A stretch of 64,000 nt of DNA from an uncultured delta proteobacterium (GTDB taxonomy: Bacteria; Myxococcota; Myxococcia; Myxococcales; Myxococcaceae). The stretch is from positions 714,272 through 778,271 of the forward strand of contig CAWCKH010000003.1 of NCBI GenBank assembly GCA_963796055.1, given 5' to 3'. This document shows, in pieces, positions 30,001-39,000 of the stretch. The first letter of the stretch is position 1; every line of letters begins with the position of its first letter. Made by a program: the position numbers.

Positions 30001-33000
30001 GCGTTGGCCGGGCTGGTGATGGAGTGCCCCGCAAGCGGGGCCGTGCCTTCAAGTTCACCGATGATCAGGCGAACGAGTTCCGCAAGCAGGTCGAGGGTGG
30101 CAAGAGCGCCGCCTCCCTGGCCAAGGAGCTGAAGGTCTCGCTCCCCACCATGTACAACACCCTCAAGCGCGCAGGCTGGAAGCCGCGCACCGGGCGCGGG
30201 CGAGGATCCGCCGGCCGCACCGTCCGGGTGTCCGACGGGGTCCCGCGCAAGCGGGGGCGGGCCTTCAAGTTCACGGCCAATCAGGCGAGCGAGTTCCGCA
30301 AGCAGGTCGAGGGTGGCAAGAGCGCCGTCTCCCTGGCCAGGGAGCTGAAGGTCTCGCTCCCCACCATGTACAACACCCTCAAGCGCGCAGGCTGGAAGCC
30401 GCGCACCGGGCGCGGACGAAACCCCACCCGGCGCGCGGCCAGGATGCGCGACGGGGCTCCGCGCAAGCGCGGGCGGGCGTTCAAGTTCACCGTGGATCAG
30501 GCGGGCGAGTTCCGCAAACAGGTCGAGGGTGGCAAGAGCGCCGCCTCCATGGCCAAGGAGCTGAAGGTCTCGCTCCCCACCATGTACAACACCCTCCGGC
30601 GCGCAGGCTGGAAGGGCCGCAGGTAGCGCAGGGGCTGGCAGGTGGGCGACCGCCCCTGTTCTCTGGAGAACGGGGCCTCCTGGACCCGGTGATGGGTGCG
30701 GACGCACGCGTTCCTTGAAGCCGCGCCTCGACCGGTGTCTCATCGGCACCGAGGGGAGCGGGCAGATGCGGCGAAGAGCGTTGCTGATGCTACCTGCGGC
30801 GGCGTTCCTGGCAGCGACGACGTTCACCACCACCACGCTCCACCCTCGCCGCTCCGAGGCAGCTCGAGACGAGATTTCACCGATTGCACCTTCACCACCG
30901 CGGTGGGCGAGAAGGACCTCCAGTGCGAAGGGCTCACCGAGACCTTTGGAGACGTCTCGGGAGATACCTTCATCCGCCTGTATTACGACTGCAGAGTTCC
31001 TTTCCTGCATCTCCACCTGCGGGTTTGTGGATGGGCAGTACGCCGGCTGCGATGGCTACCCCGGCGCGCACAAGGCAATGGGCTGCTCGACCGTGGGCTC
31101 GAACATGCCGAGGTAGCTCGCGGGCGCGCTCCGCTCGTCCTCCGGACCGGACAGAGGCGGAGGACTCTCCGCCAGCGCTTCCGGAGACTCCGAAGAGCGG
31201 GAGACGGGGGTCGAAGCCGCGACCCTCGCTTGGGAAGCGCATCCGCGGCGATTCCGCCGCTTCCACCGGTTCACACCCGTTGGGCCAGAGTCGTAGTTCC
31301 GAGGGCTTGGCCGAGGCGGAGGAGGCCGGGCCCCTTCCATCCGCTCCATCGATTCCACCGGTTCCGCTCCCGCTTGTTTCACCGCTTGCTTCAGGGGTCC
31401 GGGGGCAAACCACCGTGCGGACCCAGGGGACCAGTCTGGACCCGAGCGAAGCCACCGCGCCCGTCACCGCCGGAGCCGCCTCCTCGGTCAGCATCTGCTT
31501 GATCTGCCGCTCCGCGAGCCTATGGATGCGGCGCATCCACCGCGAGGGCTCGAGCTTCAGCGAGGCCAGCTCCCTCGGCCGAACTACTTGCGGCTGACCG
31601 AGGAAGTCGACGTGGAGCTCCTCGGGTCGGACCGGGAGGCCAGGAGCCAGCGCCGACATCTTCTCCAGAAGGTGCCGCAGGCGATCGCGGCTGCCGAGGA
31701 GCTCGGCCCGGAGGCGGTCCAGGACCTCGCCCACGACTTCGGCCAGAACGTCACCGACCACCGCTCCGACGGGACTCTCGGCCGAGTCGGCCAACATCCG
31801 CGTGAGCTCGCCTGCCGCGCGATCGAGAGCACGAGGGGTGGCAGCCTCGAGCGCCTGGACCAGCGTGCCGCAGCGGCGCTCCGCCTCCCGGAGCACCTGC
31901 TCGGCATCCAGCGCGAGCTGCTCGAGTTCCTTCCGTCCGGCATCGCCGGAGGTGGTCGGGCCGCTGGTGATGACTGCGAGGCGGGCCTTCAACGTCGCCG
32001 CCACGCCCTGCTGGAGAGCCGCGAGCTTGCGCTCTGCCGACGTCCGGCTCAGGGTGGCCACCTGCGAGACGAGGGGGCCGACCTCCCGCTCGAACCAATC
32101 CTCGGCCAGCTGTCGCTCCGTGCCCACCGTGCTCACCAGACCGACCGGAATGTCGACGCCGAGGTGCGAGTGGAGCTGCCCGGCGAGGTAATCGCGGACA
32201 CGCTCCCGATCCGAGCCCGACAGCAGGTCGACTTTGCTCAGGGCGACCTTGACCGGAATCCCCGATTCGTACAGCAGCCGGACGATGTCCAGGTCCTCCC
32301 GTCCCGGGGCGCTCGCCCCATCGACCAGGAGGACTCCAAGGTCGCACCTGGGGAGGTAGGCATAGGAGGCGCGGGCTCCGGAGGTGGCGAGCGAGCCGAC
32401 GCCAGGAGTGTCGACCAGCGCGACGTCGCCCCGGAGTCGATGCGAAGGGACATGGGCCACCACCCGCACGACGCGCCTGGCATTGCCCGGGTTCCGCTGC
32501 TCCGAGACGTACTCCCCGAGCTGCTCGAGGCCCACCTCCATGGGCTCGCGCTCCGCGAGATGAATCTCCGCCTTCGGGACCTCGCCCAGGACGATCCGGG
32601 TGGGAACCGCGGTGACCGGGGTCACGCCCACTGGCAGGACGTTCGTGCCGAGAACGGCGTTGAGAAGGGAAGACTTGCCCGAGCTGACCCGCCCGAACAC
32701 CGCGATGTCGAACGTCTTTGTCTCGAGCCGCTCGAGGAGGGCCTCGAGCAATCCGCGGAACTCGACCAATCCCTGTTCGCGGATGACGCGCTCCAGAACC
32801 GCCACCCGCCGGACGTCAAACGGTACGCCCTCCAGGCGCTGCAGCCTGGTGCCGAGGTCCCGCCCGAGCCCCTCGACGATGTACGCGTGGAGCCGGCGGA
32901 CGATCCGGTCAAGGGCGCGCTGGATCAAGCGCTGATCCTCCTCGCTCAGCAGGCCGTACCCTCGCAGGCGAGAGGGTGAGGTCTCCTCGATGGTGATCTC

Positions 33001-36000: not shown

Positions 36001-39000
36001 TCTCTCCGTTGACGTGCCCCACCGCGAGGAGGACGCCCCGGCCGCCGTAGCGCTTCGGCTCGTGGGTGTCCCGCAGCTCGACGGCCTCGCCGCTGCCGGT
36101 GGAGGCGCCGGAAGGCACGCTCGCCCGCCCCAGGTGCCCGTCCCGCAGCTCGACGTCGACCTCCACCGTGGGATTCCCTCGGGAGTCGAGGATCTCCCGA
36201 GCGCAAACCCGTGCAATCTCCGCCGTCATGTGACCTCCGATGCAGTCGGTGCGACGACGAGCAGTCCTGTTTGCCGGGTGAGCTCGTCGAGATGCTCCAG
36301 CTCCGTTCTGACCTGACCTGCTCCCAGCGCCTGGGCCCGGCGCGCCTCCTCCACCGCATCGCGGGAACGAGCACGCACGACGCCCAGCTTCCGGCGCAGC
36401 TCTTCCCTGAGCAGCCGGGCGCTCTCCTCGGCTCTCTCCGCGAGATCGAACTGGACGCGCGAGCTGTTGGCCTCGAGGAGGCGAAGGAAGTAGTGCCGCG
36501 CATGGCGCAGGATCGACCCCCGGCGCCAAGAGACGGGGAAGAGCTGGTCGAGGACCCACGACCACGGTGGCTCCCCGGTCAGCTGCATCAGGGAGGCGAA
36601 GCGCCTCTGGCTGGGGACCCGGAATCCGAGGTCGAGGTCCATGTCGGCCAGGCCCGGGGCCTCGAGCGCCCTGGCGGCACGGCCGAGGAATTCGCTCGCG
36701 ATGCGGGTCAGTCGCTCGGATGCGGCCCGGTGTAGCTCCTCGGCCCGAGATCCCTCCTCGCGCAGCCAACCCTCGGTGACTTCCCGGGCGGTGCTCTCGG
36801 CCAGGTCGAGACTCTGCGCGCGGACGGCATGGGGACGGCCGCCCAGGCCCGCGATTCGGCCCTGTAGCGCGGAGACACCTGCCGGCGCAGCGCTGGCCAG
36901 GAACTCCTGCCGCTGCTCCTCCAGCGCCGAGCGGAGCCGTTCCACCTCGACGCGGAAGGCGACGTCGAGCAACCGGAGCGACTGCTCCAGCCCATCCACC
37001 GCCGCGAGGAGCGCCTTCATCCGCCGCTCCGATTCCTCGAGCGGAACAGTGAGCGCCAGCCTGCGCTCCTCGAGCACCCCCAAAAGCTCACCCCGCAGTC
37101 GCATCAGGCCGCGCCAGGCGGCCCCCGAGGCCAGCCGGGTGCCCTCGTTGGCCGAGAGCTCCTCCAGGGCCGTCACCAGAGCTTTCCAGTCGCGTCCTCC
37201 GCTGCCGCCAGCGAGACGCTCCTGGGCGCTGACCTCGAAGTGGCGCGAACCATCGGGCACTCCGGCCTCGATGAGCACCGAGGTGGTGAAGGTCCGGGCC
37301 TCCTCGAGCGCGGCCGTGTCCATCCGATCCGCCTTGTTGAGGACGAAGAGGAAATGCTCCACGCGCCGGGACAGCTCGATGACCAGCTCGAGCTCGCGTG
37401 CCGCGATGGGAGGATCCCCTCCCAGGACGATGAGGGCAGCGTCCACCTGCGGCAGGAAGGCGAGCGTGGTCCGGGTGTTCTCCAGGTAGGTGGACTCGAT
37501 TCCTGGGGTATCGACCAGGCACATCCCGTGCGCGAGGATGGGAGCTGGAAGGAGCACCTCTGCCGCATCCAGCCGCTTGCGGTTGCGGGGGTTCTGCTCC
37601 TCGGTCACGTACGCGGCGAGCTCGGCGCGCGGAATCTCCTCCCAGTCGCCGCCGCCCACGCGGATCCGGATGGTCTCGCGCGGTCCATGCCGAACGACGA
37701 CGGCCGCCGAGGTCATCGGCCGGACCCCCACTGGGAGCACCGGGGTTCCGAGAAGCGCGTTGATGAGCGTCGACTTCCCTCGTTTGAACTGACCCAGGCA
37801 GGCCACGAAATACCGGCCGGCCACGGTGCGCTCGCGAAGCCGGTCCGCCTCGTCGGCGAGGTCGGCCATGCGGGCCCGCCGGCCCAGCGCAGAGAGCTGG
37901 GACAGGGAGGCAGCCACCTCCGGTTCCCCCGTCTGTTCCACCAGTGCAGTCATCGTCCGCTCCAGGACCGGAACAAGGGTGTCCTGAAGACGTCGAGCGG
38001 TGCCCATCGCGGTCTCCTCGTGGCGTCACGCATGCCCCGCGGACGCGTCGTTGCGTTCGCAGGAGTCATTGGCTCGCTCCGAGCAGTTCCGGCGGACTCC
38101 ACCGCCTCTGTGTCAACCTTTACATCTACGCAGTCGAGGCTGACTTCTCAAGGGGTGAGAGCAGCCCTGGGTGGACCGATGGGCCTGGCGGAGCGGCGTC
38201 GGTCCCGGTACGGTTGGTGACCAGTCGAGGCGGTGGAGTCCGCCATGAACCGCCGGTCGGCGTGTCCGAGCGGCCAATGACTCCTGTGAGCGTGGGGAGA
38301 CCGCAACGGTTCCCCCGGTTTCACGGGAGGCGTCCATGGCCAAGGTCCTCGAGAAGCGCAAGGCACCCACGGAAGTCAACCGCTGGCTTTCCGCACGTCG
38401 CGGTGTCTGGCCGTGACTCAGGTCTGGACGCTCGCCGCACTATGGCTCGGGCTGGCGCTGCTGGCCACTCTGCTCTCCATCTGGTTCCGGGTGGCGACGG
38501 CCCTGTCGGAGATCGTCGTGGGCACGGTCGCCCAGTTGGTCATCGGAGCGCTGATCGGCGGTGCGGTGCTCGGAACGGACCAGGGCTGGATCAAGTTCCT
38601 CTCCGGCACCGGGGCCATCGTCCTCACCTTCCTCGCCGGCGCAGAGCTCGATCCGGTGGTGTTCCGAGCGCGCTGGAAAGAGGCCACGCTGATCGGGGCG
38701 GTCGGGTTCTTCGCACCGTTCCTCGGCTGCGCGTTCATCGCCCACTGGGTGCTGCACTGGGGTTGGAGGCCCAGCTGGCTCGCCGGTGTCGCTCTGTCCA
38801 CGACCTCGGTGGCGGTGGTCTATGCGGTGATGCTCGAGCTCGGCCTGAACAAGACCACCTTCGGGAAGGCGGTCCTCGCGGCCTGCTTTGTCAACGACCT
38901 GGGCACGGTCATCGCCCTGGGGTTGATCTTCGCTCCGTTCGGCTCCCGGACCCTGGCCTTCGTGGGAGTGGGCATCGCGGTCTTTGCCGTGCTCCCCTGG

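Follow-up and report, generated by a model that had tools for sequence, protein, structure and literature searches.

Fluoride riboswitches precede a subfamily of bacterial dynamin-like GTPases, including two encoded on an apparently decayed genomic island in Myxococcaceae

Does a bacterial dynamin-like GTPase encoded behind a fluoride riboswitch take part in the response to fluoride, and in what capacity? The question arises from a locus in a 64,000 nt stretch of contig CAWCKH010000003.1, from an uncultured member of the Myxococcaceae (the window, to whose positions all coordinates refer unless prefixed C3:, for contig numbering). The cell role of most bacterial dynamins is unclear, partly because the conditions in which they are needed are not known, and a subfamily wired to fluoride would offer a cheap and exact trigger together with a simple phenotype. 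The first-pass annotation held that the natural signals of these proteins are mostly unknown, which is too sweeping, as triggers have been reported for DynA, IniA and RdcA. If true, the connection would extend fluoride resistance, so far described mainly as export and enzyme dosage, by an arm acting at the membrane; this resistance is a limit on efforts to break down and synthesise organofluorines (PMC11139923).

Two RF01734 aptamers lie divergently inside a 405 nt spacer (38,008–38,412; Table 1). Both score above the Rfam gathering threshold of 34 and span the full model, including its two stems and the tail that forms the pseudoknot, and they are the only RF01734 matches found in the genome; by these sequence features, both are almost certainly genuine fluoride riboswitches, as first proposed. 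The minus-strand switch occupies a 5′ leader position, 46 nt upstream of the start of the gene for the first dynamin, DLP1. In the minimum-energy fold of this leader the GAGGAG motif pairs with aptamer bases, and its probability of being unpaired was 0.17 with the real aptamer, whereas shuffling the aptamer raised it to 0.49 and none of 40 shuffles gave so low a value; a search of the expression platform for a terminator-like site revealed none. This modelling points to probable translational control of DLP1 by the switch. For the plus-strand switch, masking of the ribosome-binding site was weaker in the same test (3 of 40 shuffles). Domain searches bore out that this second switch heads genes for a Na+/H+ exchanger, a DUF190-CBS protein and a universal stress protein, preceded by a leader ORF; locus L002 has one of equal length and overlap, and so does L003, where the sequence differs. 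The genome's own crcB gene is outside this island, and the genome scan found no switch near it.

Table 1. Features of the fluoride-riboswitch locus and of the island carrying it (window coordinates).
Feature	Position	Strand	Evidence or remark
DLP2 ORF, non-homologous read-through tail, about 145 codons	30970..31407	-	crosses island-end repeat
att-like core, 3′ part of tRNA-Gly(CCC), left island border	31195..31236	-	direct repeat
DLP2, homologous part, residues 1 to about 620	31408..33267	-	Dynamin_N 81 bits, above cut-off
AAA/STAND-like P-loop ATPase	33264..34019	-	Pfam AAA_16/AAA_22, below cut-off
Small HAD/soluble P-type-ATPase-like phosphatase	34016..34498	-	weak NCBIfam matches, E about 2e-4
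HIT-family nucleotide hydrolase	34554..34934	-	PF01230 79 bits
Second enolase, catalytic motifs intact	34931..36229	-	TIGR01060 601 bits vs. cut-off 300
DLP1, 593-aa dynamin-like GTPase, intact	36226..38007	-	Dynamin_N (PF00350) 82.7 bits, above cut-off
Expression platform, ribosome-binding site GAGGAG at 38014-38019	38008..38052	-	predicted translational ON switch
Fluoride riboswitch aptamer RF01734, heads dynamin operon	38053..38115	-	42.2 bits, E 2.5e-08, full model
Second fluoride riboswitch aptamer RF01734	38220..38293	+	39.0 bits
26-codon leader ORF behind plus-strand switch; stop overlaps antiporter start	38336..38416	+	translation
Na+/H+ exchanger (CPA2-like)	38413..39615	+	PF00999 130 bits
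DUF190 (COG1993) fused to four CBS domains	39645..40937	+	domain search
Universal stress protein (Usp)	40947..41372	+	PF00582 95 bits
Arsenic-resistance operon (arsR, arsI/cadI, acr3, arsC-like, arsN2), same island	41550..44493	-	
Tyrosine-integrase C-terminus remnant, adjoins right att core	44845..45015	+	translation
att-like core, right island border	45130..45172	-	direct repeat

Behind the minus-strand switch are six ORFs on the same strand, beginning and ending with a Dynamin_N gene as had been noted, in the order DLP1, enolase, HIT, HAD-like, AAA ATPase and DLP2; their junctions measure -4, -4, +55, -4, and -4 nt, i.e., four of the five overlap by 4 nt. The HAD-like product carries what we take to be a HAD motif, and a profile derived from a cluster of neighbours matches the AAA ATPase at E 1.4e-20. 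The operon enolase is 58% identical to the other, housekeeping copy (C3:201948-203222) and clusters with enolases from other fluoride loci. The proposal that it replaces a poisoned enzyme is weakened: a comparison of 38 fluoride-locus with 20 housekeeping sequences (the latter mostly from Myxococcales) yielded 11 distinguishing columns, none of them a catalytic residue, and no active-site change marking a fluoride-resistant enolase. An extra enolase induced by fluoride had already been described (PMC5533749, in the part available).

The two operon products are the only strong Dynamin_N matches in the genome. DLP1 has motifs G1–G4 at residues 72, 92, 166, and 224, and the GTPase motifs are invariant or nearly so across the alignments of the dynamin family. 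Its predicted structure (pLDDT 85.9) is most like IniA and BDLP1, and the models of DLP1 and of an intact DLP2 orthologue (from locus L003) show, after the GTPase domain, a helical neck and trunk matching IniA, BDLP1, and Cj-DLP, all of them distant matches (13–18% identity, TM ≤ 0.41). The trunk tip reads as an aromatic-basic helix lacking a clear transmembrane segment. DLP2 has an extra N-terminal helical domain of around 140 residues before the GTPase domain, neck and trunk. Its ORF (30,970–33,267, minus strand) had been annotated as 765 aa, a length that does not correspond to the protein family: its 75% identity to the L003 orthologue ends at residue 620, where DNA likeness also stops, while 21 DLP2 orthologues continue past this point, and the remaining codons are read-through at the island end. 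The loss amounts to about 55 residues, comprising the second half of helix 586–645 and helix 654–665 of the orthologue model, and there is also a 4-residue deletion relative to the same orthologue. The idea of a dynamin pair is thereby weakened here; in this genome DLP1 is intact and DLP2 probably crippled. Short DLP2 versions also occur in loci L070, L073, and L077.

At about residue 620 the island end at tRNA-Gly(CCC) interrupts DLP2, and the cluster is therefore island cargo. A further copy of the att-like core lies near 57,170–57,211, and the region 31,154–31,420 is 82% identical to 57,128–57,395. An intact tRNA-Gly(CCC) bears this core in four of the five congeners searched, and none was found in this assembly. 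The translation adjoining the right core contains what is presumably a tyrosine-integrase motif, and like stretches adjoin other tRNA genes of the genome. Flanked by copies of a tRNA 3′ end and retaining its integrase only as a remnant, the element bearing the operon has the appearance of a decayed, tRNA-targeted genomic island.

The linkage of switch and dynamin extends well beyond this genome. The loci compared are the best 80 of more than 570; they are skewed to Acidobacteriota and to soil and peat samples and are therefore not independent. A same-strand upstream switch was found within 7.4 kb of 70 of the 80 DLP1 relatives (19 within 600 nt) and upstream of 60 of the 80 DLP2 relatives (47 within 300 nt). 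Short flanking sequence accompanies part of the absences, with less than 2.5 kb of upstream DNA in two of the 10 DLP1 loci and less than 300 nt in nine of the 20 DLP2 loci lacking it. When 50 of the 54 loci that had supplied no row to our own RNA model were re-tested with Rfam's model, all 40 loci with an upstream match agreed with an Rfam match, 36 of them over the gathering threshold, against a chance expectation of 0.07. In a separate sample, a switch preceded 35 of 38 close kin (dynamin matches of at least 140 bits; 30 switches over gathering) and none of 25 weaker, distant dynamin matches; genomes with dynamin kin had on average 3.0 switches vs. 0.24 in those without. This conserved, family-specific linkage strengthens the original suggestion that the dynamins belong to the fluoride regulon and indicates that the DLP1/DLP2 subfamily is very probably fluoride-regulated. 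A locus resembling the one first described from another family does exist in the same order, with the switch followed by a 587-aa ORF, CrcB, a 577-aa dynamin and a split enolase.

Gene orders under the switch vary widely. By tblastn, the 80 loci contain DUF190 (45), CrcB (38, often in the same gene run as the dynamin), antiporter (23), and enolase (21) genes. Enzymes of phosphoryl transfer are numerous in the regulon (HAD, HIT, metallophosphoesterase, NUDIX, phosphoglycerate mutase, MutS-like ATPases). The HIT gene of the operon is a local passenger (3 of 80), and the HAD-like gene was matched in two of 80. The AAA ATPase recurs with the dynamins: 40 of 80 DLP1 loci have it, often directly before DLP1. 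The two dynamins, here separated by four genes in one operon, are often apart: a GTPase-bearing DLP2 occurs in 24 of 80 DLP1 loci, and DLP1 in nine of 80 DLP2 loci (four of 29 among those of at least 12 kb). Many loci carry the DLP2 N-terminal domain without a GTPase, a stand-alone piece that may resemble the split LeoB/LeoC. The family is patchy, occurring in 13 of 301 genomes of the order, and is therefore not needed by most relatives. A partial relative was also seen on one viral contig.

Each part of the operon is of a known kind, and it is the coupling of switch and dynamin that is absent from the literature searched, which did not include Baker 2012 and its supplement. Neither "dynamin" nor "GTPase" occurs in the main text of PMC11139923, PMC2864571, and PMC7266159, the first of which lists Na+/H+ antiporters and HAD enzymes among fluoride regulon members. 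The nearest operon, ppaC-uspA-eno-gpmA-crcB-orf5249 of island GI3 in Enterobacter cloacae FRM, shares the riboswitch class, the island location, an extra enolase, Usp and a small P-type/HAD-like gene (PMC5533749, whose available part has no match to "GTPase", the one word searched). Unlike it, our island lacks Fluc and CLC-F, and its operon opens with a dynamin-like GTPase gene and has genes for an AAA ATPase and a second dynamin further down. The best structural match of both dynamins is mycobacterial IniA/IniC (PDB 6J72), a stress-induced pair of operon-encoded dynamins that bind lipid through a basic tip and have no transmembrane anchor (sections of PMC6715688), a scheme that DLP1 and DLP2 may share; however, identity is 16–18%, IniA is induced by cell-wall drugs with no riboswitch, and DLP2 has the additional N-terminal domain. 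Campylobacter Cj-DLP1/2 (PDB 5OWV; portions of PMC6104087) and Nostoc BDLP1 (2J68) have the same GTPase, neck and trunk layout, and one Cj-DLP member also has an N-terminal extension, but the Cj-DLP genes are side by side and their products mutually dependent, whereas DLP1 and DLP2 are encoded apart and often under separate switches. Bacillus subtilis DynA, Escherichia coli LeoABC and E. coli RdcA/CrfC are bacterial dynamins linked to stress on the membrane, to delayed phage lysis, to vesicles or to the sensing of GTP, for none of which the papers searched give a fluoride link; our proteins fall far below the DynA (43–48 of 1600 bits) and CrfC (28–32 of 1146) family models and score 26–48 bits with LeoA/LeoBC in PADLOC, which gives no cut-off.

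What might the dynamins do? A rise in fluoride would fold the aptamer and free the DLP1 ribosome-binding site, and the stop-start overlaps would also turn on the genes behind. DLP1 and DLP2, members of a dynamin subfamily that is very probably dedicated to the fluoride response, would attach to the cytoplasmic membrane by the basic, amphipathic tip of the trunk. By analogy with IniA and DynA, they would spend GTP on stabilising, resealing or pinching off membrane in a cell that fluoride and HF are de-energising. The small AAA ATPase may assist them, and the operon enolase would add dosage of a fluoride-sensitive enzyme, a known mechanism. From the fold and the IniA/DynA analogy, we lean slightly toward a membrane-protective role; the whole explanation, a fluoride-inducible operon on a decayed island whose dynamins protect the membrane, seems to us barely likelier true than false. 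The linkage of switch and dynamin suggests that bacteria answer fluoride in part by caring for their membrane, an aspect that has drawn little notice, and a Pseudomonas putida screen concluded that membrane stability matters under fluoride (PMC9796867, in part). A wider proposal is possible but rather doubtful: that across many phyla DLP1, the AAA ATPase, and either DLP2 or its stand-alone N-terminal domain form a dedicated fluoride-induced membrane machine, a third resistance arm beside export and enzyme dosage under a riboswitch that senses an ion. We know of no other dynamin wired to such a riboswitch. In the boldest form, fluoride may act twice, inducing the genes via RNA and locking the GTPase domains as GDP-magnesium-fluoride; the locked state may be membrane-bound and dimeric, so that the poison itself switches on repair.

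It is unlikely, in our judgement, that the dynamins are instead GTP-sensing switches or scaffolds that, with no reshaping of membrane, alert partners such as the AAA ATPase, DUF190 or transporters when fluoride makes the cell's energy supply collapse. RdcA can act in this way (excerpts of PMC13463826), fluoride blocks lower glycolysis (PMC11139923), and both the frequent AAA ATPase and the GTPase-less DLP2 domains would fit; against this, the full neck and trunk with its amphipathic tip are conserved, the match to the CrfC/RdcA model is poor, and no diguanylate cyclase appears among the recurrent neighbour clusters scanned. Somewhat less probable is a service to fluoride transporters, through insertion or clustering of Fluc and antiporters, or the removal of fluoride, with metal-fluoride deposits or damaged membrane leaving the cell in vesicles. 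CrcB is indeed a common neighbour, LeoA has been tentatively placed in vesicle release (portions of PMC6104087) and mycobacterial dynamins are tied to vesicle secretion (part of PMC10240201), but no crcB match turned up in 42 of 80 loci or on this island, and most Fluc-bearing organisms lack the subfamily (CrcB in 11 of 14 control genomes).

A further reading is dosage compensation. GTPases can be trapped by metal-fluoride, and the regulon's wealth of phosphoryl-transfer enzymes would agree with over-production of the dynamins as victims of fluoride, much as enolase and the phosphatases are, held as GDP-metal-fluoride, to keep an ordinary function going; this is improbable, as the genome has no housekeeping dynamin to back up and most relatives do without the family. 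Mere hitch-hiking of anti-phage or general-stress dynamins (DynA/Eleos-like) on stress islands, outside the fluoride response, is very improbable: although the locus shares its island with arsenic genes, PADLOC gives LeoA/LeoBC matches and DynA delays phage lysis (PMC8844932, in part), those matches are weak, none of the 25 distant dynamins sampled is linked to the switch, one viral contig has a partial relative, and the dynamin is first or near-first under the switch in 19 of 80 (DLP1) and 47 of 80 (DLP2) loci, in many gene orders.

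Both fluoride riboswitches that the first-pass annotation had placed in the window were recovered with Rfam model RF01734, each above its gathering score of 34, and no further fluoride riboswitch was found elsewhere in the genome. The minus switch precedes six minus-strand genes coding, in order, for DLP1 (a Dynamin_N GTPase), an enolase, a HIT protein, a small HAD-like protein, an AAA-type ATPase and DLP2, a run that does start and end with a Dynamin_N ORF and enclose the enolase and HIT genes, as first described. At four of its five junctions stop and start codons overlap by 4 nt, at the remaining one 55 nt separate the genes, and a terminator scan found no minus-strand site within the run; the sequence evidence that the six genes form one translationally coupled operon is good. 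The plus switch likewise heads the genes originally assigned to it, for a Na+/H+ exchanger, a DUF190-CBS protein and a Usp protein; the sole crcB match of the genome is on a different contig, remote from both switches.

Features of the window and of homologous loci (L handles) discussed in the text
Feature	Coordinates	Strand	Remarks
Surface protein	25515-29636	+	1373 aa, Thr/Ala-rich; CARDB-like and 78-aa repeats
Helix-turn-helix repeat protein	29856-30626	+	256 aa; three 72-aa repeats (216-nt period)
DLP2 ORF	30970-33267	-	765 codons
tRNA-Gly(CCC) repeat, left	31195-31236		
DLP1	36226-38007	-	593 aa
Minus switch	38053-38115	-	42.2 bits; 3' edge 46 nt from DLP1 start
Plus switch	38220-38293	+	39.0 bits
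Leader ORF	38336-38416	+	26 codons; stop overlaps antiporter start
Arsenic-resistance operon	41550-44493	-	arsR, arsI/cadI, acr3, arsC-like, arsN2
Integrase remnant	~44845-45015		seen in translation
tRNA-Gly(CCC) repeat, middle	45130-45172		core of the repeat
Inverted repeat	46315-46378		25 nt, near-perfect, 14-nt spacer
Metal gene set	47411-54891	+	ExbB, TonB, TonB-dependent receptor, cation-efflux genes
Stretch 82% identical to DLP2 tail	57128-57395		
tRNA-Gly(CCC) repeat, right	57153-57211		
204-aa Cys-bearing family	L167:5964-6578		21 loci
DUF6062 protein	L165:7397-8188		11 loci
290-aa family	L159:2184-3056		21 loci; no Pfam match
HEAT-like protein	L053:1626-2615		19 loci
Enolases of two Acidoferrales genomes	L058:11787-13082, L064:11791-13086		
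Dynamins with MutS_V-only ATPase pairs	L269:6832-13397, L270:9507-14847, L272:5427-10086		

At least 1666 of the 8000 candidates scored are relatives of DLP1. Of 586 loci in the genome collection, the best 80 come mostly from Acidobacteriota, and also from Myxococcota, Verrucomicrobia, Gemmatimonadota, Binatia, Methylomirabilia, Rokubacteria, deltaproteobacteria and one member of the Burkholderiales. A regular-expression search found a switch in only 28 of these 80 loci and missed the minus switch of the window; it was superseded by a covariance model trained on 33 switches (matches below 25 bits dropped) and then by Rfam's model. With the covariance model, 70 of the best 80 loci carry a same-strand switch upstream of DLP1 within 7.4 kb, in 19 cases within 600 nt. 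Because 26 of the 80 loci had trained this model, 50 of the 54 loci outside the training set were re-tested with Rfam: all 40 with an upstream match have a matching Rfam row, 36 over gathering, where chance would give 0.07 of 50. No upstream switch was found in the other 10 of the 80 loci, of which two have short upstream DNA and two more have crcB and DUF190 upstream and switches downstream. Of 14 DLP1 stretches from the order, two of which repeat loci L002 and L003, 10 show an upstream switch (two of them weak); three of the other four are cut off by contig ends. For DLP2, 572 metagenome loci were available, and 60 of the best 80 carry a switch upstream, in 47 cases no more than 300 nt away; the count is 57 of 68 for loci with at least 300 nt of upstream DNA.

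In the predicted ligand-free fold of the minus switch, the aptamer tail is base-paired with downstream sequence and the second stem pairs with the ribosome-binding site; the L003 locus (77% identical) has the same predicted fold. Openness of the ribosome-binding site was 0.17 with the real aptamer, compared with a mean of 0.49 for 40 shuffled aptamers, none of which was as low. This shuffle control replaced an earlier accessibility test (24 of 44 rose, none fell), which was biased since blocking any upstream RNA liberates bases. No terminator was found behind the minus aptamer, so it is likely, as modelled, to be a translational ON switch; in a loose test, terminator-like ends follow the switch in 26 of 70 relatives. 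A promoter scan returned no sigma-70-like site, but such a scan is uninformative at the GC content of this host. The plus switch seems to control a leader ORF to which the antiporter is coupled. L002 and L003 have such an ORF too; the one in L003 differs in sequence but has the same length and overlap.

Using tblastn on the 80 DLP1 loci, we found DUF190 in 45, CrcB in 38, the antiporter in 23, enolase in 21 and Usp in 13; HIT and the HAD-like gene, in three and two loci, are local members. The most frequent uncharacterised partner is the AAA-type ATPase, whose cluster profile matches the window gene (E 1.4e-20) and 40 of the 80 loci, 33 of which trained the profile; in an atlas search the window protein fell among uncharacterised AAA clusters. 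A GTPase-bearing DLP2 occurs in 24 of the 80 DLP1 loci (three short); 13 more encode a close copy of the DLP2 N-terminal domain that lacks the GTPase, and about 10 others have weaker copies. Conversely, DLP1 is present in nine of the 80 DLP2 loci (four of 29 among long ones), so adjacency of the two dynamins is not required. The stand-alone DLP2-N-like proteins (L029, L031, L034, L037, L044, L048, L051, L057, L059, L061, L071, L072 and L079) are 146-204 aa long, consist of the helical domain only and occupy DLP2's place in fluoride operons; the only one scanned, from L031, matched no Pfam family, and an atlas search with the short protein returned only unnamed clusters, at 0.82. Four other gene families recur in these operons (Table).

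The G1-G4 motifs of DLP1 and DLP2 are intact and conserved across the respective families, and the 30% identity between the two proteins is confined to the GTPase domain. Structure models of DLP1 (pLDDT 85.9) and of the intact DLP2 orthologue from L003 (80.0) both find IniA, BDLP1 and Cj-DLP1/2 as best fold matches, at 13-18% identity, and the trunk tip carries a helix of aromatic and basic character, comparable to the basic loop through which IniA interacts with lipids (PMC6715688). Membership in the DynA, CrfC or Leo families was rejected on family-model and PADLOC searches. Since the complete remodelling architecture is kept, the role we favour for these dynamins, which would be induced by fluoride, with presumed read-through along the operon, is membrane protection. 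The nearest studied proteins, IniA, DynA and Cj-DLP, act on stressed membranes according to the respective reports (PMC6715688; PMC8844932; PMC6104087), and a Pseudomonas putida screen points to membrane stability as important under fluoride (PMC9796867). As rivals to membrane protection, the dynamins might be a GTP-sensing switch like RdcA (PMC13463826), or might aid export or shed vesicles; dosage compensation is a further alternative. Simple hitch-hiking near fluoride genes is unlikely given a specificity control, in which the switch accompanies 35 of 38 close relatives and none of 25 distant dynamins.

This control comprised 401 genomes of the phylum of its centre genome, 54 of them with a match; RF01734 was run on 52, the centre genome (without a switch) and one unpublished genome being excluded. 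For matches of at least 140 bits, the 35 switches lie upstream on the same strand within 7.5 kb, 30 of them over gathering, whereas the 25 weaker matches, mostly larger dynamins, have no such switch upstream. The proposed link of these dynamins to the fluoride riboswitch is borne out, and this regulatory link is strong and specific. Genomes with the close relatives hold a mean of 3.0 fluoride riboswitches above the cut-off, against 0.24 for those with distant dynamins only, and reach up to seven matches in genomes of 2.8-3.3 Mb. The control loci also contain MutS-like and formate-hydrogen-lyase-like genes, named as crcB-motif genes in PMC2864571, which confirms the fluoride context; for the same reason, these GTPases may plausibly figure in the gene tables of the 2010 and 2012 papers. 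In three loci (L269, L270 and L272), MutS_V-only ATPase pairs are flanked or preceded by more distant dynamins linked to fluoride, with hydrogenase-like membrane subunits nearby.

The riboswitch-dynamin coupling joins two known things, and we found no description of the combination in the literature searched, which excluded most subscription papers. By titles and abstract beginnings, none of the papers found on bacterial dynamins and fluoride concerns fluoride stress; by title, those found on dynamin and crcB are all eukaryotic; and 'dynamin' and 'COG0699' are absent from the eight supplements of PMC2864571 searched (S1, S3 and S7, which include Additional files 1 and 3, were outside the search).

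The operon enolase has all catalytic motifs and shows 58% identity with its housekeeping counterpart. In a quick tree it clusters with 10 other fluoride-locus enolases (SH-aLRT 98); fluoride-locus enolases as a whole form no single clean clade, and no catalytic residue sets them apart. The 58% identity and this grouping led us to reject a recent duplication of the housekeeping gene. Two Acidoferrales genomes (L058 and L064) yielded no enolase other than the one beside DLP1, and neither locus has a riboswitch within 10 kb.

The 765 aa initially reported for DLP2 is not its natural length. The match to its 75%-identical orthologue ends at residue 620, 21 orthologues extend about 55 or more residues past this breakpoint, and the missing part corresponds to the final helices modelled for the orthologue. 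The final ~145 codons cross a repeat at an island end (Table) and have no homology to orthologues, so a natural fusion was also rejected. The 3' portion of tRNA-Gly(CCC) makes up the repeat core, which lies within an intact tRNA gene in four of five congeners and in tandem copies in the fifth. These flanking repeats, together with a remnant that we take to be a tyrosine integrase, identify 31.2-45.2 kb as a decayed island on which both the fluoride cluster and an arsenic operon lie. The left end of the island clips DLP2, and the present locus is therefore an imperfect example of the fluoride-dynamin link. The family is patchily distributed: among 301 genomes from the order 13 carry it, this one included, as does one of six other genomes of the genus, consistent with mobile cargo; with two partial, distant matches among 72,556 plasmid records and one partial relative among viral contigs, it is not chiefly plasmid- or phage-borne in those collections.

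ARAGORN found no intact tRNA-Gly(CCC) in the assembly, in which the contig stops at window position 64000. The three repeats outline tandem decayed islands at this tRNA. Acr3, encoded in the arsenic operon, lies near DLP1 in three of the 80 loci. The helix-turn-helix repeat protein is encoded just outside the island, and the gene set of the next island suggests metal uptake or export.
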